A stretch of 5,823 nucleotides of DNA, taken from a virus. The stretch covers positions 1 through 5,823 of IMG/VR virus record IMGVR_UViG_3300045988_006127. One strand, given 5' to 3'. Shown one piece after another: positions 1 to 5,823 of this stretch (position 1 is its first letter; each line of letters opens with the position of its first letter). The notes under the pieces are model-generated. The model saw only the letters and a program-made list of their open reading frames with translations, was not told where the DNA came from and did no database searches. Position numbers and translations under genes: made by a program.

Positions 1-99
1 AATAATGAATGGATTAGCCGAGCTCCGCATACGCTACGCACGGCAAGGCGCTAAAGCGCCATTCAAACCAAAAAACAATTGACAAGCGACAAAAAAAAT
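1..99. repeat. Terminal direct repeat, copy A (identical to 5725-5823); circular-assembly overlap
   Basis: Base-by-base comparison: aataatgaatggattagccgagctcc...gacaagcgacaaaaaaaat is identical at both ends (99/99). Confidence 0.95.
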
Positions 100-107
100 G
101 ATATAAT
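79..107 (+). promoter_or_regulatory. Consensus sigma70/sigmaA-type promoter with extended -10
   Basis: TTGACA at 79-84, exactly 17-nt spacer, TATAAT at 102-107 preceded by TG at 99-100 (TGaTATAAT). A-rich tract at 68-78 upstream. It lies about 25 nt upstream of the peptidase start codon. Confidence 0.8.
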
Positions 108-132
108 CAAAACAGAAAGCGAGGAAACGGCC

Positions 133-525
133 ATGAGCATTAAAAGCTACCTTGTAAATACTGACGGAAACGTAAAACTAGCAAGACACTTCAAAGTAAA
201 AGAATTTGCTTGCAAAGACTTAAGTCCAGTAGTGTTTATAGATGAATATCTATGGAACGTGCTGGACATCCTCCGGCATAAACTAGGAAAACCGGTAATA
301 ATCACCAGCGGATACAGAACACCAGAGTGGAACACAAAATGCGGCGGAGCAAAATACAGCTATCATATGCGCGGTATGGCAGCAGACATCCGAGTAAATG
401 GAATGACACCGAAACAAGTAGCCAACATACTGAATGAAATTGTACCGGATGAATGCGGCATTATCGTATACAAAAGCTGGGTGCACTTTGACGTGCGCAA
501 AAGCAAATACAGAAAAGGGATCTGA
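133..525 (+). CDS. Zinc D,D- or L,D-peptidase of the LAS / peptidase M15 (M15A/M15_3, YcbK/MepK-like) family; probable cell-wall hydrolase (130 aa)
   Basis: ATG at 133 preceded by GAGGA (121-125). The track ORF starts at TTG 79, which is the -35 box. Motifs: SGYRTPEWN, H78-x6-D85 (YSYHMRGMAADI; codons at 364 and 385) and H118 in WVHFD (codon 484), i.e. the H/D/H zinc triad of LAS peptidases. No signal peptide or TM segment is visible. Confidence 0.85.
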   Translation: MSIKSYLVNTDGNVKLARHFKVKEFACKDLSPVVFIDEYLWNVLDILRHKLGKPVIITSGYRTPEWNTKCGGAKYSYHMRGMAADIRVNGMTPKQVANILNEIVPDECGIIVYKSWVHFDVRKSKYRKGI

Positions 526-609
526 ATGACCTAACGGCGCATACTGGACGGACAGGTTCCGCGAAGTCAATAGTATTAGGGCAATCAGAAACAGAAAGGA
601 GGTGTAACA

Positions 610-732
610 ATGGCACTGATTAGCATTAAAGACGTCAAACAGGCAATCCGGCTTATGATGCAGATTCTCGAAAAGCTTGACGAAATCTATCACGCGCTGC
701 ATGATAGCGTCAACGAAAAAGAAAAGGAGTAA
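610..732 (+). CDS. Small hypothetical protein, 40 aa (MALISIKDVKQAIRLMMQILEKLDEIYHALHDSVNEKEKE), not in the supplied ORF track
   Basis: Near-perfect SD AAAGGAGGTG at 595-604, 7 nt from GGAGG to ATG 610. TAA at 730-732. The stop is followed 2 nt later by the next ATG, and that gene's SD lies inside this ORF's 3' end. Predicted amphipathic helix with an acidic C-terminus. Confidence 0.6.
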   Translation: MALISIKDVKQAIRLMMQILEKLDEIYHALHDSVNEKEKE

Positions 733-734
733 CC

Positions 735-962
735 ATGATGCAAAAAACATGGAATGTACGCGACCAGACCAAAGAAGCAATTGAAGAGCTGCTCGAACGA
801 AAATACAAAGAAATTGATGGCAATTACAAAATGCTTAAAAAAGTGTCAAACATCGAGGATGCAAAAAAGCTAATAGATGAAATTTGGCAGATGAAAAGCT
901 TTGCATATGCCATGGAGTTAGAGCTAATGCGAAGGGAGTATAACAATGGGACGACATCGTAA
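735..962 (+). CDS. Small hypothetical protein, 75 aa, helical and charged, function unknown
   Basis: SD AAAGGAG at 723-729, ATG at 735 (second ATG at 738). Same strand and tight packing with neighbours. No motif I recognise. Confidence 0.65.
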   Translation: MMQKTWNVRDQTKEAIEELLERKYKEIDGNYKMLKKVSNIEDAKKLIDEIWQMKSFAYAMELELMRREYNNGTTS

Positions 963-1068
963 AGCAATGAACGGCGCAAAAGACCGCCGTATGTTTAACG
1001 TAACCGCACGAAAAACCAAAACCATCAACCTTAGCCAGAAACCTATGCGCGGTGGCATCCGGCTGTAA
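946..1068 (+). CDS. Small highly basic DNA-binding/packaging protein (phiX174 J analogue; gokushovirus ORF8/VP8-like), 40 aa
   Basis: Hand translation: MGRHRKAMNGAKDRRMFNVTARKTKTINLSQKPMRGGIRL. 12 of 40 residues are K/R. The C-terminal PMRGGIRL matches what I recall from Chlamydia-phage/gokushovirus ORF8 proteins. SD GGGAG at 934-938, ATG at 946, 17-nt overlap with the upstream ORF. Not in the ORF track because it is too short. Confidence 0.75.
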   Translation: MGRHRKAMNGAKDRRMFNVTARKTKTINLSQKPMRGGIRL

Positions 1069-1086
1069 AAAAGGAGAATAAATATC

Positions 1087-1326
1087 ATGAAACATGAATA
1101 TTTTGGTCTGTGGGACAGTGTAGCAAAGTGCTATGCATGGGTAGGCGAGAGCAAGAACAATGCAACCTTTGCACGTATGTGCAACGTAATGGCAAAGGAT
1201 GAAAAAACGTTTGTTGGACAGGCACCGGACGACTATACCGGCTTTAAACTGGCAGAGTTTAACGACGAGACCGGAACCTTTGAAAACTGCAAGGAAAAAG
1301 TATGGGAGGGCAAGCCGCTTGAATAA
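1087..1326 (+). CDS. VP5-like small non-structural protein (gokushovirus ORF5; proposed phiX174 protein C analogue), 79 aa
   Basis: SD AAGGAG at 1071-1076, ATG at 1087. Its size, its position just upstream of VP3/VP1, and the pattern YFGLWDSVA...PDDYTGFKLAEFNDETG resemble my recollection of VP5 (F.D..A...DY.L..G.FD..TG). The CDS call is solid. The functional label is moderate. Confidence 0.7.
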   Translation: MKHEYFGLWDSVAKCYAWVGESKNNATFARMCNVMAKDEKTFVGQAPDDYTGFKLAEFNDETGTFENCKEKVWEGKPLE

Positions 1327-1334
1327 ACGATACG

Positions 1335-1360
1335 AAGAAGGGCGAACGCCCTTCTTTTCT
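1335..1360 (+). terminator. Intrinsic terminator/attenuator hairpin between the VP5-like gene and VP3
   Basis: AAGAAGGGC (1335-1343), loop GAAC, GCCCTTCTT (1348-1356), followed by TTCT. 9-bp stem and a short U-tract, 9 nt after the TAA at 1324-1326. Confidence 0.6.
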
Positions 1361-1375
1361 GCATCAGGAGAAAAA

Positions 1376-1717
1376 ATGCGAAAGCAATACGTCTGGACAA
1401 AAGACGAAAAAGGACAAGAAGTGCTGCAAGAAACAGCACCAATAGACATCCAACAGGAAATTGAATCGTACTCGGAAGAGTGTGATATCAAAAACATTGT
1501 CCGAAAAGCAAGTTTTGACCCGCAATTTCTGAAAAGCCTGTCACAGGGAGCGCTGGAAGGAACAGAGGTGGATATTACAGAATTTCCGCAAAACATCCAT
1601 GAGTATCACCGCATGATTGCAACAGCACAGGTAAACGCCATGAAACTTGAAGAACTACAAAAAACGGCAACAGCGGAACCTAAAGAAGAACCTAAAGCAA
1701 AGGAGGGAGAAGAGTGA
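1376..1717 (+). CDS. VP3: Internal scaffolding protein VP3 (113 aa)
   Basis: ATG at 1376 preceded by GGAG (1367-1370). The track ORF from 1199 would overlap the previous gene and run through the terminator hairpin. ECDIKNIVRK...GTEVDITEFPQNIHEYHRMIATAQ resembles the gokushovirus VP3 scaffold core. Acidic/lysine-rich tail. The stop overlaps the VP1 start. Confidence 0.75.
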   Translation: MRKQYVWTKDEKGQEVLQETAPIDIQQEIESYSEECDIKNIVRKASFDPQFLKSLSQGALEGTEVDITEFPQNIHEYHRMIATAQVNAMKLEELQKTATAEPKEEPKAKEGEE

Positions 1718-3378
1718 ACCGAAACAATGAACGGCACTTTAACCAAATTCCGGAAATGAAAGCGAGTCGAACGCGGTTTAACCGTGACCAGACGATTTTA
1801 ACAACGTTCGATTCCGGCAAGCTGATTCCATTTTACGTTGACGAGGTATTGCCGGGCGACACCTTTAACGTAGACACGGCAGCAATCATCAGAATGACCA
1901 CACCGAAGTATCCTGTTTTCGATGACGCATTCATCGATTTTTACTACTTCTACTGTCCTAACCGTATCTTATGGGATGACTTCAAACAATTTATGGGAGA
2001 AGTCGAAAACAAGCCTTGGATGCCAACAAAGGACTACAAAGTACCGCAAATCGTAATAAAAGGAACAACAGAAAAAGGCTGCCCAAATGAAAATTCAATC
2101 TTGGACTATATGGGAGTACCAACAAAAATTGGCGCACAATTCTCAATCAACGCACTTCCAATCAGAGCATATGTCATGATATGGAACGAGTTTTTCCGAG
2201 ACGAAAACGTTGAAAACGCAGCAGTATGGAAAAGCACCAGCGAAGATGTAGAATATCAAGACACAAACGATGAAGATAACCTTGAAGGAAATTTACAGCG
2301 GGCAATCGCAGGAGGTAGGTGCTTACCGGTAAACAAATTCCATGACTACTTTACAAGTTGTATGCCTTATCCTCAGCGCGGGCCGGCAGTGACGCTGCCG
2401 ATGGAAGGTAATGCAGCTATATTCACAGGTGACATCTACGGGAGACCCAAAGAAACCTCTATCTTCCTTTGCAACACTACACCAAACCAGCAAGGACGTC
2501 TAACTTCAATAAGCTTCAAAAACAGCTATTTAACGGACGTACTAGGAAGCACAAAAGCAACCGGAACGGGTGGACAGGACACAGACGGATACTTATATGC
2601 AGACCTTAGCACAGTAACAGCAGCAACCATCAACGACTTGCGCAAGGCCGTAGCAGTACAGCAGTACTACGAAGCGCTTGCAAGAGGTGGTAGCCGTTAC
2701 CGTGAACAGGTACAAGCACTATGGGACGTAGTAATCAGCGATAAAACCGTGCAGGTGCCGGAATACCTTGGCGGTGGCAGATATCACGTCAATATTAACC
2801 AAATCGTGCAGACCAGCGGTCAGCAGACCAACGAAGACACGCCCATAGGTGAAACTGGAGCAATGTCAGTGACACCCATCAATGAAAGCAGTTTCACAAA
2901 ATCTTTTGAAGAGCATGGCTTTGTAATTGGCGTATGTTGCGTCCGACACAATCACAGTTATCAGCAAGGCTTGGAGCGTTTTTGGAGCAGAACCGACAGA
3001 CTAGATTACTATGTACCTCAGTTCGCAAACTTGGGGGAACAGCCTGTCAAAAAGAAAGAAATCATGTTGACAGGCAAAGCAACAGACGAAGAAACATTTG
3101 GGTATCAGGAGGCCTGGGCAGATTATCGCATGAAACCTAATCGGGTTTCAGGCCTCATGAGAAGCAACACAACCGGCAGTCTAGACTTCTGGCACTATGC
3201 AGACAACTACAAAAACGTACCGACGCTATCGCAGGAATGGATGAAAGAAGGAAAAGAAGAAATTGCACGCACACTCATCGTGCAAGATGAACCACAATTT
3301 TTCGGAGCAATCCGCATAGCAAACAAAACCACGAGACGGATGCCGTTATACAGCGTACCGGGCTTGTATAAACTGTAA
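1714..3378 (+). CDS. VP1: Major capsid protein VP1 (phiX174 F-protein family), 554 aa
   Basis: GTG start at 1714 overlaps the VP3 TGA (GTGA), with SD GGAGG at 1702-1706. The N-terminal ...RTRFNRDQTILTTFDSGKLIPFYVDEVLPGDTF... is the hallmark microvirus capsid motif. Size and position are typical. Confidence 0.93.
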   Translation: MNRNNERHFNQIPEMKASRTRFNRDQTILTTFDSGKLIPFYVDEVLPGDTFNVDTAAIIRMTTPKYPVFDDAFIDFYYFYCPNRILWDDFKQFMGEVENKPWMPTKDYKVPQIVIKGTTEKGCPNENSILDYMGVPTKIGAQFSINALPIRAYVMIWNEFFRDENVENAAVWKSTSEDVEYQDTNDEDNLEGNLQRAIAGGRCLPVNKFHDYFTSCMPYPQRGPAVTLPMEGNAAIFTGDIYGRPKETSIFLCNTTPNQQGRLTSISFKNSYLTDVLGSTKATGTGGQDTDGYLYADLSTVTAATINDLRKAVAVQQYYEALARGGSRYREQVQALWDVVISDKTVQVPEYLGGGRYHVNINQIVQTSGQQTNEDTPIGETGAMSVTPINESSFTKSFEEHGFVIGVCCVRHNHSYQQGLERFWSRTDRLDYYVPQFANLGEQPVKKKEIMLTGKATDEETFGYQEAWADYRMKPNRVSGLMRSNTTGSLDFWHYADNYKNVPTLSQEWMKEGKEEIARTLIVQDEPQFFGAIRIANKTTRRMPLYSVPGLYKL

Positions 3379-3389
3379 GAAAGGAGGAT

Positions 3390-3415
3390 GCCCGGGCAAA
3401 ACCCGGGCTATTTTT
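3390..3415 (+). terminator. Rho-independent terminator after VP1
   Basis: GCCCGGG (3390-3396), loop CAAAA, CCCGGGC (3402-3408), then TATTTTT (3409-3415). Begins 12 nt after the VP1 stop. Confidence 0.75.
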
Positions 3416-3417
3416 AA

Positions 3418-4278
3418 ATGGGCGCATTATCAGGATTCTTAACAGCACTAAACGTAGCGGGAAACGTAGCAAACACAATCGGAACTTTTGCAGGAGCAGC
3501 TAAAAACGTAGCCGGAGCGTTTGGCGGATGGGGACAGACAGGCAATAGCCAAAGTAGCGGCGGCAGCATAAGCCAAGGCGGCGGACATTCCGAAAGCGGA
3601 AGTCAATCCGGCACAAACGTGCAACAGGTCAACGAATGGCTAAAACAAGCATACGCATACCAAGGGCAAGAAGCAGCCATGCAAGGTAAATACAACAGTC
3701 AAAGCATGCTTAAACAAATGGGTTACAACACCTTACAAGCAATCATGCAAGGCGTATACAACCACATTGAAAACAGCGTAGCAATGAACTACAACAGTGC
3801 AGAAGCACTAGCAAACCGTGAATGGCAAGAACACATGTCAAACACAGCATACCAGCGAGCCGTAGAGGACATGAAAAAAGCAGGGCTTAACCCTATCTTA
3901 GCGTTCTCAAACGGCGGCGCAAGCACACCGGGAGGAAGTGCAGGAACAATCAGTGGAGCAAGTATGGGACTTGCAAGCAGCAGCGCACTAGGAGTAAGCC
4001 GAAGCAGCGGATTTGTACCAAATGCATACTCAAGCTCAAGCTGGAGTAAAAGTGACTGGTATAATGCTGCACAAAGCTGGCAACAAATGCTTAGTTCAAC
4101 GCACATGACACCATATGGACTGCAAAAGGCGCTTACAAAAGTCGGAAACGACACAAACAAGGCCATTACAGATGCAACGGAAAAAGGAAAATACGCAGAA
4201 CAAAGCAGAAGCATAAAGCCACAAGACAAAACAGGAACATACGGAGAAAAGCGAAAGCCGGGTGATTATTTGAAGTGA
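3418..4278 (+). CDS. VP2: DNA pilot / minor capsid protein VP2 (phiX174 H analogue), 286 aa
   Basis: Hydrophobic Gly/Ala-rich N-terminus, then a Gly/Ser/Gln low-complexity stretch (about nt 3523-3612). Conserved gokushovirus VP2 motif SNTAYQRAVEDMKKAGLNPILAF (nt 3838-3906). An in-frame TAA immediately upstream fixes the ATG at 3418. Confidence 0.88.
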   Translation: MGALSGFLTALNVAGNVANTIGTFAGAAKNVAGAFGGWGQTGNSQSSGGSISQGGGHSESGSQSGTNVQQVNEWLKQAYAYQGQEAAMQGKYNSQSMLKQMGYNTLQAIMQGVYNHIENSVAMNYNSAEALANREWQEHMSNTAYQRAVEDMKKAGLNPILAFSNGGASTPGGSAGTISGASMGLASSSALGVSRSSGFVPNAYSSSSWSKSDWYNAAQSWQQMLSSTHMTPYGLQKALTKVGNDTNKAITDATEKGKYAEQSRSIKPQDKTGTYGEKRKPGDYLK

Positions 4279-5294
4279 GTTGTTACAAGCCATTAATAAG
4301 GCTGTACGACCCTAACGACAAAAACATTAGCGGGAGGGTGTATTCACTCTCCCGCTATTCTCAGTTAGCGGGAAAGCAGCTAAAATATGAAGATCTAATG
4401 TACAGAAAAGATGTAATGCTGATACCATGTGGGCAGTGCATCGGATGCAGAATAAGGCAAAGGGAAGACTGGACAACACGAATAGAATTAGAAGCACGAG
4501 ACTATCCAAAAGAAGAAGTATGGTTTATCACATTAACTTATGATGATGAGCATGTACCGGGCATGATAGTAAACACAGGCGAAATCATGAGAAAAGTACA
4601 ATACGTCTGGAAACCGGGAGAGAAGCGCCCTGAAAGCGTCCAAACGTTGCTATATACTGACGTTCAAAAATTCTTAAAACGTCTCAGGAAGGCTTATAGG
4701 GGCAAATTACGCTATTTTGTAGCGGGAGAATACGGAGAACAGACGGCAAGGCCACATTACCATATGATTTTATACGGATGGCGGCCAACAGACCTAGAAC
4801 ATCTATACAAGATACAACACAACGGATATTACACAAGTAAATGGCTAGCAGACCTATGGGGCATGGGTCAAATACAGATAGCACAAGCAGCACCGGAAAC
4901 ATATAGATATGTTGCAGGATACGTCACGAAAAAAATGTACGAGATAGACGGTCAAAAAGCAAACACATACTACGAACTAGGGCAACAAAAGCCTTTTGCG
5001 TGTATGAGTCTTAAACCAGGACTAGGAGACCACTACTATCAAGAACACAAAGCAGAAATCTGGAGACAAGGGTATATCCAATGCACAAACGGCAAACGCG
5101 CACAAATTCCACGTTATTATGAAAAAATGATGGAAGCAGAAAACCCACAAAGGTTGTGGAGAATTAAACAGAACAGACAAGCAGCAGCCATAGCAGAAAA
5201 CCGACTAAAGTACGAAAATACAGACTTTGCAGAACAGTGCAAAACGAAAGAAAGAGTGATAAAGAAGCAGATGAAGAAGAGAGGGACACTTTAA
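4275..5294 (+). CDS. VP4: Rolling-circle replication initiator VP4 (HUH endonuclease, phiX174 A analogue), 339 aa
   Basis: GTG start overlaps the VP2 TGA (GTGA at 4275-4278). Motif I FITLTY (4524-4541), motif II HYH in RPHYHMILYG (4755-4763), motif III with two catalytic tyrosines YVAGYVTKK (4908 onward). N-terminal CGQCIGCR cysteine cluster is typical of gokushovirus VP4. Confidence 0.93.
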   Translation: MSCYKPLIRLYDPNDKNISGRVYSLSRYSQLAGKQLKYEDLMYRKDVMLIPCGQCIGCRIRQREDWTTRIELEARDYPKEEVWFITLTYDDEHVPGMIVNTGEIMRKVQYVWKPGEKRPESVQTLLYTDVQKFLKRLRKAYRGKLRYFVAGEYGEQTARPHYHMILYGWRPTDLEHLYKIQHNGYYTSKWLADLWGMGQIQIAQAAPETYRYVAGYVTKKMYEIDGQKANTYYELGQQKPFACMSLKPGLGDHYYQEHKAEIWRQGYIQCTNGKRAQIPRYYEKMMEAENPQRLWRIKQNRQAAAIAENRLKYENTDFAEQCKTKERVIKKQMKKRGTL

Positions 5295-5305
5295 CAGTGT
5301 CATGG

Positions 5306-5353
5306 TGTCACCTAGCCAAGTACCTATCAAGTAAGGTACTTGGCTAAGTGTCA
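5306..5353 (+). promoter_or_regulatory. Long imperfect hairpin immediately after VP4 (possible terminator or ssDNA structural element)
   Basis: Perfect 13-bp stem TAGCCAAGTACCT (5313-5325) / AGGTACTTGGCTA (5334-5346), loop ATCAAGTA. It extends to 5306/5353 with two mismatches. No clear T-run follows. GTGTCA occurs three times (5297, 5305, 5348). Confidence 0.6.
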
Positions 5354-5385
5354 TTTAAAAGGTCCATGTATCAGTCTATTCAGTG

Positions 5386-5418
5386 AATAAAAAGGGGCTG
5401 ACCTAAAGTCAGCCCCTT
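5386..5418 (-). terminator. Textbook intrinsic terminator oriented on the minus strand
   Basis: Minus strand reads AAGGGGCTGAC-TTTAG-GTCAGCCCCTT followed by TTTATT (11-bp GC-rich stem, 5-nt loop, U-tract). On the + strand the stem (5392-5402 / 5408-5418) is followed by GCGTCGCG with no U-tract. Confidence 0.6.
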
Positions 5419-5447
5419 GCGTCGCGCCCCAATCTTGGGGCTGCCGC

Positions 5448-5499
5448 TGTGCGCACGCGCGCACGCGCGCGCAAACGCGCACGCGCACACGTGCGCATA
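5448..5499. repeat. GC-rich perfectly alternating pyrimidine/purine tract (CG/CA/TG dinucleotides; CGCGCAC-type repeats)
   Basis: Uninterrupted Py-Pu alternation over 5448-5473 (26 nt) and Pu-Py over 5475-5499 (25 nt), separated by a single A. The outer arms TGCGCACG (5450-5457) and CGTGCGCA (5490-5497) are complementary. It is a strong compositional outlier next to AT-rich DNA. Confidence 0.85.
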
Positions 5500-5598
5500 A
5501 TATTATATAACTTGTTGTAGTCGTAGTAATAGAGGTAGTGGAAAAGTTGAAAAGTACTAAAATTTAGCGCTAAAACGTAAATAAAAAGCAAAAAACAA

Positions 5599-5710
5599 TG
5601 TTGAAAGTTTTGTTGAAAGCTTGTTGAAATGTTGAAAGTTCGTCAAAATGACGAAAAGCATTGTACAACTTTATGTTGAAAACCTGTTGAAAGTGTTGAA
5701 AGTGTTGAAA
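5599..5710 (+). repeat. Iteron-like array: eight direct copies of TGTTGAAA in two clusters of four
   Basis: Exact TGTTGAAA at 5599, 5611, 5622, 5630 and at 5674, 5685, 5694, 5703 (start-to-start spacings 12, 11, 8, 44, 11, 9, 9). One degenerate copy AGTTGAAA at 5545. All copies have the same orientation. Scanning by eye, I found no exact copy in the coding regions. Confidence 0.85.
5639..5655. promoter_or_regulatory. Small hairpin centred between the two iteron clusters
   Basis: TTCGTCA (5639-5645), loop AAA, TGACGAA (5649-5655), a 7-bp stem. It is followed by the 8-nt palindrome TTGTACAA (5661-5668). Confidence 0.6.
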
Positions 5711-5724
5711 ACGCGCACAGCGCT

Positions 5725-5823
5725 AATAATGAATGGATTAGCCGAGCTCCGCATACGCTACGCACGGCAAGGCGCTAAAGCGCCATTCAAACCAAAAAAC
5801 AATTGACAAGCGACAAAAAAAAT
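5725..5823. repeat. Terminal direct repeat, copy B (identical to 1-99)
   Basis: Same 99-nt string as 1-99. It cuts the promoter between the -35 and -10 elements, as expected for an arbitrary linearisation point and not a biological end. Confidence 0.95.

Follow-up and report, generated by a model that had tools for sequence, protein, structure and literature searches.

Rolling-circle replication driven by a Rep protein, with a small origin specific to the phage, has its textbook example in the microviruses. In phiX174 this origin is a site of ~30 nt inside gene A that reads CAACTTG^ATATTAATAAC. E. coli datA and the clusters of B. subtilis are DnaA-titrating groups of boxes outside oriC, and the basal unwinding system (BUS) of the B. 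subtilis origin is reportedly the subject of work by Richardson (2016, 2019). Here an array of eight direct repeats, TGTTGAAA, is compared with these systems. It lies in the non-coding region of a gokushovirus, IMG/VR record IMGVR_UViG_3300045988_006127, positions 1 to 5,823 (the window, i.e., the whole stretch of 5,823 nt that was analysed). With a probability of about 0.7, we read the repeats as DnaA boxes of the host type (YTTTCAACA on the other strand) within an oriC-like unwinding cassette that would act on the replicative form.

In a BUS, a DnaA box, single or paired, is separated by no more than 16 bp (typically a second box and ~4 G/C-rich bp) from three or more NAN trios, among which 3'-GAT-5' is preferred. 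The system has been described for B. subtilis and is predicted in most bacteria, and DnaA oligomerises at the trios, which leads to strand separation (Pelliciari 2021, PMC8287927). In plasmid and phage theta origins, DnaA boxes help the replicon's own initiator, and DnaA contact with the single-stranded DNA of these origins has not been shown (PMC10797057).

The repeat array and its cassette

All eight exact copies of the 8-mer are on the + strand, with starts at 5599, 5611, 5622, 5630, 5674, 5685, 5694 and 5703. They cover 5599-5710, and neither strand of the window contains another one. Shuffled sequences hold 0.37 copies on average and three at most, eight being reached in 0 of 200. The count bears out the initial annotation, made from the sequence alone, which had described eight 8-mers in one orientation in a 4 + 4 arrangement. 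The extent that it gave, 5545-5711, begins with the degenerate copy AGTTGAAAA (5545-5553). The 7-bp hairpin at 5639-5655, the palindrome TTGTACAA at 5661-5668 and the 12-mer CAACTTTATGTT at 5666-5677, which it had noted between the two clusters, are all present. Apart from a G+C-rich tract, the DnaA-type box is the only clustered repeat of the non-coding region, which extends from 5295 across the circular junction to 132.

The repeats always come inside a larger cassette, 215 nt in length, with the following parts from left to right:

5498-5511: AT-only stretch (TAATATTATATAAC region), candidate DNA-unwinding element, bounded on the left by the G+C-rich tract
5512-5517, + strand: TTGTTG, containing two TTGT copies; the most conserved part of the cassette
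5518-5532, + strand: in-phase trinucleotides TAG TCG TAG TAA TAG, candidate DnaA-trios (5'-TAG-3' being 3'-GAT-5')
5533-5536: 4-nt spacer AGGT between the trios and the first box
5537-5553, + strand: two abutting degenerate boxes, AGTGGAAAA and AGTTGAAAA
5599-5637, + strand: array 1, four exact TGTTGAAA (starts 5599, 5611, 5622, 5630), complement YTTTCAACA
5639-5655: central inverted repeat TTCGTCA-AAA-TGACGAA
5659-5669, + strand: ATTGTACAAC, replaced by ATTGTGCAAC in relatives
5674-5710, + strand: array 2, four exact TGTTGAAA (starts 5674, 5685, 5694, 5703; spacing 11, 9, 9)
5713-5722: right cassette boundary GCGCACAGCG, an inverted repeat, perfect over 10 nt, of CGCTGTGCGC (5445-5454)

In general form the order is an AT-only run, CTTGTTGTAG-NN-GTAGTAGTAG, a 4-nt spacer, two abutting box-like 9-mers, a spacer of ~45 nt, four boxes, the CGTCA-N3-TGACG palindrome with TTGTGCAAC, three or four more boxes and ACGCGCACAGCGC.

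The relatives used for comparison are 12 GenBank genomes (from human, pig and monkey faeces) and ~90 IMG/VR microvirus contigs, and conservation figures were computed on 94 unique cassettes from them, compared with the window. The cassette is found in every complete relative examined (~100 genomes, VP4 identity 37-96 %), and the 8-mer is kept unchanged in all of them, including those in which VP4 identity to the window drops to 37-57 %. Identity to the window is 96 % at box positions and 76 % in the spacers between boxes. An AT-only run of 12-16 nt precedes CTTGTTGTAG in 94/94 cassettes. TTGTTG reaches an identity of 0.99 in this set, which was itself collected by the TTGTTG motif. At the trio position most relatives have TAG GAG TAG TAG TAG, and the 4-nt spacer (GCAA, GCAC or GGGA in relatives) is conserved in length and not in sequence (0.42 identity). 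The complement of the degenerate box AGTGGAAAA is TTTTCCACT; many relatives have instead TGTGGAAAA, whose complement, TTTTCCACA, is a DnaA box of the canonical type. A motif of the TTGTGCA(A/C) type is present in 85/94 cassettes between the two arrays, where the relatives' complement, TGTTGCACA, fits the relaxed DnaA box TTWTNCACA at 8/9 positions and the match of the window is weaker. The TTGT within TTGTTG has been reported as a single-strand motif for E. coli DnaA (PMC10797057).

The cassette behaves as a unit. Among close relatives (VP4 91-96 % identical) the array is present in 75/77, the remaining two being artefact contigs: one (L142) is a chimera of a gokushovirus and a tailed-phage portal/terminase region, probably a misassembly, and the other (L174) is cut at the contig end. 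Neither could thus serve as a naturally array-less relative. Of the 75 array-bearing close relatives, 7 have the entire cassette turned round with respect to the genes, the inverted copies joining at the GCGCACAGCG boundary (5713-5722), and in a distant clade (L004, L036, L084) it is inverted and lies between VP2 and VP4. Inversion or relocation as a unit is what would be expected of a self-contained module that a host protein reads on double-stranded DNA, and not of Rep sites bound to a nick site. One 10.7-kb contig (L178, IMGVR_UViG_3300045988_004182) carries two cassettes in opposite orientation and may be dimeric or have arisen by the joining of two genomes.

Next to the AT-only stretch lies the G+C-rich tract (5443-5497), an alternation of purines and pyrimidines with partly palindromic GCGCAC/GCGCGC repeats. 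It is present yet variable in relatives and folds no better than shuffled sequence. Because inverted cassettes join within it, this tract may be the recombination site of the inversion. A dif-like site, GTGCGCATAA, at 5491-5500, which we take to resemble the XerC arm of E. coli dif, was rejected: its other arm is mismatched and the motif is absent from relatives. A long-range pairing of 5543-5558 with 5657-5672, by which a box of the virion strand would become double-stranded, was discarded, as inspection by eye showed no conservation among relatives.

The array is a conserved and selected repeat, putatively protein-binding, that is most likely tied to replication. To this extent the control element for replication proposed by the initial annotation stands; its interpretation as a Rep-iteron origin is not supported. 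That annotation had also offered a binding array for a transcription factor and repeated -35-like boxes. A host factor other than DnaA that acts at origins could, for example, be a Spo0A-like regulator: the 0A box has the pattern TGNCGAA, a single base distinguishes TGTTGAA from TGTCGAA, and the TGACGAA arms of the central repeat agree with the pattern. However, TGTCGAAA is absent from the host origins and from the 94 cassettes, and the CGTCA palindrome is not associated with the box clusters of hosts. As to -35 boxes, a promoter scan returned no sigma-70 promoter-like site in 5500-5724. A 52-codon open reading frame (ORF; 5648-5806) that starts in the central hairpin is open in the window, but its ATG is missing in 31/94 cassettes and it falls below 40 codons in 10 more, so that coding was dismissed as well. 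A Spo0A-like factor, -35 boxes and this ORF are, even taken together, highly improbable explanations of the repeats. A structured RNA finds no encouragement either, no Rfam family reaching its gathering score in 5250-5823.

Likeness to bacterial replication origins

Three adjacent copies of the 8-mer were sought in 185,579 species-representative bacterial genomes. The scan returned 120 loci, ~46 of which are from Oscillospiraceae, Ruminococcus and related Clostridia, with the greatest density of clustered copies in the dnaA-dnaN interval:

L231, 1634-2466: origin boxes, 22 copies in the 833 nt between dnaA (272-1633) and dnaN (2467-3603)
L221, 6478-7722: dnaA-dnaN origin boxes
L269, 4975-5550: dnaA-dnaN origin boxes
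L297, 4932-5628: dnaA-dnaN origin boxes
L216, 1586-2335: dnaA-dnaN origin boxes

In the dnaA-dnaN regions of six Oscillospiraceae/Ruminococcus genomes, TTTCAACA occurs 12-23 times versus 0-1 times for the canonical TTATCCACA. T or C precedes the 8-mer in 94/107 copies from hosts and in 514/578 from phages, and this shared preference makes YTTTCAACA the box unit. It is one change away from the relaxed DnaA box consensus TTWTNCACA, and the commonest variant with one mismatch is the canonical core TTTCCACA, with 21 copies in host origins and 82 in phage cassettes. With an E value of 1e-105 against B. subtilis DnaA, the protein that flanks the host origin is a normal DnaA. In its recognition helix, 6/6 box-rich hosts have GGRDH-S-TIV-Y, versus DH-T-TV(I/L)-H in B. 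subtilis, E. coli and Aquifex, the altered positions presumably being equivalent to T435 and H439, through which E. coli DnaA contacts bases. Oscillospiraceae and Ruminococcus thus apparently rely on YTTTCAACA as a divergent DnaA box and have a changed recognition helix; no description of either was found in the literature searched, in which TT(T/A)TCAACA had earlier been proposed as the DnaA box of mollicutes (PMC3322544).

Contigs of Mesoaciditoga (Thermotogota) also contain dense TTTCAACA clusters with trios (L241 at 2748 and 5187; L282 at 7868 and 65). Two convergent modules of boxes and CTA trios flank an AT-rich core there, with no dnaA inside the 8-kb blocks. This box-plus-trio pattern lends independent support to TTTCAACA as a DnaA box.

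The likeness extends to the arrangement of the parts. Host origins have a box-trio module at their dnaN-proximal end, in the order box, 4-nt G/C-rich spacer, (CTA)n and AT-rich DNA. A search for TTTC[A/C]ACA followed by 4 nt (cccc, tacc or gccc), CTACTACTACTACTA and AT-rich sequence finds exactly one such module per origin in five host origins, and the 30 nt beyond the trios are 73-97 % AT. The other strand of the window reads TTTTCAACT TTTCCACT acct CTA TTA CTA CGA CTA CAA CAA G TTATATAATATTAT, with CTATTACTA as its trio part; many relatives have the cleaner version TTTTCCACA ttgc CTA CTA CTA CTC CTA. Judged by the rules for a BUS, which allow a box up to two mismatches to the species consensus, the eight exact YTTTCAACA boxes match that of the presumed host. 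A tandem box pair is followed by a spacer of 4 nt, well within 16 bp, and TAG TAA TAG next to the box make up three consecutive NAN trios, followed by TCG TAG. Past the trios comes the AT-only run of 12-16 nt seen throughout the cassettes.

The module therefore shares with the oriC BUS of B. subtilis the tandem box pair, the ~4 bp G/C-rich spacer, the 3'-GAT-5' trinucleotides and the AT-rich DNA, in the same order and spacing, as well as further boxes upstream that are mostly in one orientation. Its agreement with the Oscillospiraceae/Ruminococcus version extends even to the box variant and to the spacer of 4 nt. Unlike an oriC BUS, it resides in a 5.7-kb single-stranded DNA phage, away from dnaA and dnaN. 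Its AT-only stretch, of ~14 nt, is short and has a G+C-rich tract at its edge, TTGTTG stands between the trios and the AT stretch, and the CGTCA palindrome splits the box array. The occurrence of the same 8-mer in the same geometry in dnaA-dnaN origins suggests that host DnaA is what binds the boxes, and Oscillospiraceae/Ruminococcus (Clostridia) are the likely host group.

This architecture is conserved, matches that of host origins and does not depend on orientation, and from it we infer DnaA binding, unwinding and their consequences as follows. Host DnaA-ATP would occupy ten boxes on the double-stranded replicative form; the DnaA oligomer would then extend onto the trio (TAG) strand and melt the AT-rich stretch (5498-5532). 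Loading of the host helicase would follow, and the most likely consequence would be replication of the replicative form begun by host proteins. Such replication would be independent of, or additional to, rolling-circle synthesis by VP4, the replication protein of the phage, which probably begins at a separate hairpin with the motif ACTTGAT. A role for the cassette in helping VP4 to reach single-stranded DNA is possible, but is a poor fit with the variable geometry.

P1 oriR, F, RK2 oriV and pSC101 also represent mobile replicons in which boxes for host DnaA adjoin an AT-rich region (PMC10797057). They rely, however, on their own Rep and iterons, with DnaA assisting (PMC10797057), whereas the phage has no theta-type Rep gene, DnaA boxes as its only repeats, and trios. 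The system itself would thus be of a known kind, its novelty lying in the carrier and in the divergent box. The literature searched contains no account of DnaA boxes, trios or an oriC-like module for Microviridae.

Several points weigh against an unwinding cassette. We know of no microvirus that needs DnaA, and no such array occurs in 11 other gokushoviruses examined that have a homologous VP4, so that it is not a general requirement. Within the window, only three consecutive trios obey the NAN rule, the trio-adjacent boxes on the other strand (TTTTCCACT and TTTTCAACT) have one mismatch each, and the AT-only stretch of ~14 nt is shorter than the AT DNA of host origins. The 120 bacterial loci include no gokushovirus prophage (no match to VP1 or VP4, and no CTTGTTGTAG). 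The identity of the host box is deduced from position and geometry, and the assignment of the host is partly circular, with Shine-Dalgarno sites and a sigma-70 promoter as weak independent hints. Finally, the phage might simply soak up DnaA, although soaking alone would need no full unwinding module.

The cassette is specific to the clade of the window, since SpV4, phiMH2K and eight random gokushoviruses do not have the box array. Chp2 has only two TGTGCAAAA copies. They are located in its intergenic region (L332, 2812-2946), which reads TGTGCAAAA aag TGTGCAAAA aa TGCCCAAAA, the complement TTTTGCACA fitting TTWTNCACA. These repeats, ~60 nt upstream of the ACTTGAT hairpin, may represent a small DnaA-box pair in a classical gokushovirus.

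VP4 and the hairpin behind its gene

The window holds a complete circular genome of 5724 nt, 5725-5823 being a duplicate of 1-99, and every gene is on the + strand:

133-525, + strand: peptidase M15
between peptidase M15 and VP1, + strand: several small ORFs and VP3
1714-3378, + strand: VP1
3418-4278, + strand: VP2
4275-5294, + strand: VP4
5306-5353, - strand: hairpin directly after the VP4 stop codon, with the loop TACTTGAT on the strand opposite to the genes

VP4 is an HUH endonuclease and a homologue of phiX174 gpA, with the family motifs HYH and YVAGYVTKK. It is the sole replication gene, and no theta-type initiator gene with iterons of its own was found. The initial annotation had regarded the 8-mers as iterons for a Rep, around a stem-loop origin. 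In this interpretation VP4, or another phage protein such as VP5, would bind the 8-mers and be positioned at a nearby rolling-circle nick site. The nature of VP4 speaks for this, as does AACTTG at 5509-5514, ~85 nt upstream of the first exact box, which we take to be the six bases before the phiX174 cleavage site. In pMV158, moreover, the direct repeats of the bind locus lie ~80 nt from the nick site. Nevertheless, the 8-mer remains constant while VP4 diverges to 37 % identity, instead of tracking the Rep, and the inversions and the relocation in the L004 clade leave it without a fixed position or orientation relative to the ACTTGAT hairpin, the orientation of which to the genes does not change. 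The same boxes, with the same variants and geometry, are present in bacterial origins that have no VP4, and other gokushoviruses with a homologous VP4 have none. We consider iterons for VP4 to be very unlikely.

The central hairpin does no better as an origin. Its AAA loop of 3 nt cannot hold a nick motif. The DNA fold is -5.8 kcal/mol (z -4.3), the perfect 7-bp stem is kept in only 21/94 cassettes and compensatory changes are absent, so that it is conserved as a sequence (core CGTCA-N3-TGACG) in most cassettes and not as a covarying stem. The palindrome TTGTACAA is private to the window genome, relatives having TTGTGCAAC. The resemblance of CAACTTTATGTT (5666-5677) to the phiX174 core, pointed out by the initial annotation, is not conserved as a CAACTTG^ATA-like site: the central segment reads CAACTT in 23/94 cassettes and CAACAT in 47/94, the latter being the usual form in relatives. 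Direct repeats close to a hairpin, in a single-stranded DNA virus that encodes a Rep, recall the origins of CRESS-DNA viruses and geminiviruses, but the short loop without a nick motif, the repeats that do not co-vary with Rep and the lack of a fixed geometry set this locus apart.

A better match to the phiX174 core is provided by the hairpin behind VP4, where ACTTGATA is found at 5325-5332 on the other strand; its eight bases also stand in an unbroken row in the phiX174 cleavage region CAACTTG^ATATT. The hairpin has 17 bp, a DNA fold of -16.6 kcal/mol (z -7.5) and a loop at 5326-5333, and on the strand opposite to the genes the loop TACTTGAT is followed by GGTGACACC (AGGTACTTGGCTAGGTGACACC). 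Its stem covaries, with 5 pairs changed on both sides and a covariation score reached by 0/500 shuffles. This loop is the best candidate for the VP4 nick site. The parallel with phiX174 is that VP4 is a gpA homologue and that the loop carries part of the phiX174 core; the differences are that the array lies outside the nick element and that the gokushovirus motif is in the loop of an intergenic hairpin and not within the Rep gene.

The strand on which this hairpin lies varies among gokushoviruses. The design, in which a variable stem carries a (N)CTTG(A/T)T loop and has a 3' flank of the TGACACC(A) type, is on the coding strand and intergenic in Chp2 and six uncultured gokushoviruses, with a weaker 3' flank in L334 and L335, and SpV4 has ACTTGAT on the coding strand at a stem-loop junction. 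Throughout the cassette-bearing group (the window, L003, L004, L006, L025 and L078) it is on the opposite strand. On the coding strand, four-fold sites of the cassette group contain 42-53 % A and 12-14 % T, as compared to 43-70 % T in eight genomes with a coding-strand hairpin; L337, L340 and phiMH2K are exceptions to the pattern. The agreement between composition and hairpin strand suggests that the cassette group displaces and packages the strand complementary to the genes. The literature searched held nothing on negative-sense virions in Microviridae or gokushoviruses.

Further downstream, a perfect 11-bp hairpin, AAGGGGCTGAC/GTCAGCCCCTT, at 5392-5418 is followed by TTTTTATT on the minus strand and occurs in only some relatives. 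In appearance it is either a terminator, placed opposite to the genes, or a single-strand priming signal.

Possible DnaA titration and biological meaning

The explanation nearest to an unwinding cassette keeps DnaA and drops the unwinding: replicative forms with ~10 boxes each could act as a decoy that soaks up DnaA and restrains host initiation, or DnaA could tune a promoter. All the evidence on the boxes applies equally here. Oscillospiraceae genomes carry a three-box unit, TGTTGAAAAnnnTGTTGAAAnTGTTGAAAA (spacing 12, 9), at many intergenic sites away from the origin, as in known DnaA-titrating clusters:

L240, 6318-6346: three-box unit
L249, 3908-3936: three-box unit
L266, 428-456: three-box unit
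L250 (R. albus) and ~12 other loci: three-box unit

B. subtilis has comparable DnaA-box clusters, and array 2 of the phage is arranged like the host unit. A promoter that could be tuned exists: a perfect sigma-70-type promoter, TTGACA-17-TATAAT, at 79-107 (5803-5831 in circular numbering), 93 nt beyond the last box. It is the only strong promoter, and one of three promoter-like sites of the window that are flagged with TG ahead of the second hexamer, the other two being weaker. But a decoy needs neither trios, nor a fixed length of the 4-nt spacer, nor TTGTTG, nor an AT-only stretch, all of which are conserved. A sensor is at odds with the absence of a fixed relation to the promoter, the cassette lying between VP2 and VP4 in one clade and extra genes intervening in other genomes. 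Dense boxes of the high-affinity type outside oriC, and the similar units in host genomes, are what the phage has in common with datA and the B. subtilis clusters; those do not have an adjacent module of trios and AT-rich DNA for unwinding. On this evidence, a decoy or sensor is an unlikely explanation, though a serious one. The promoter and the strong Shine-Dalgarno sites (GGAGG) ahead of most genes are both compatible with a host of the Firmicutes type.

Taken further, an unwinding cassette would mean that a whole clade of mammalian gut gokushoviruses has adopted a working origin-opening module from its hosts. Host DnaA could then replicate the double-stranded form, which might even be kept in the manner of a small plasmid, without the phage Rep, and the opposite-strand hairpin with the reversed composition may signal packaging of the antisense strand, in what would be the first negative-sense lineage of microviruses. 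This extended scenario is tentative and, taken as a whole, rather doubtful. For the opening by DnaA, each step is accessible to published assays with the purified protein and short DNA scaffolds. The boxes also offer a sequence-based prediction of the host (Oscillospiraceae/Ruminococcus) for a large group of uncultured phages from the human and pig gut. If host DnaA does open the cassette, a gokushovirus of 5.7 kb would possess a second, host-initiated mode of replication or maintenance, which could help to explain how very abundant gut phages persist without integration.

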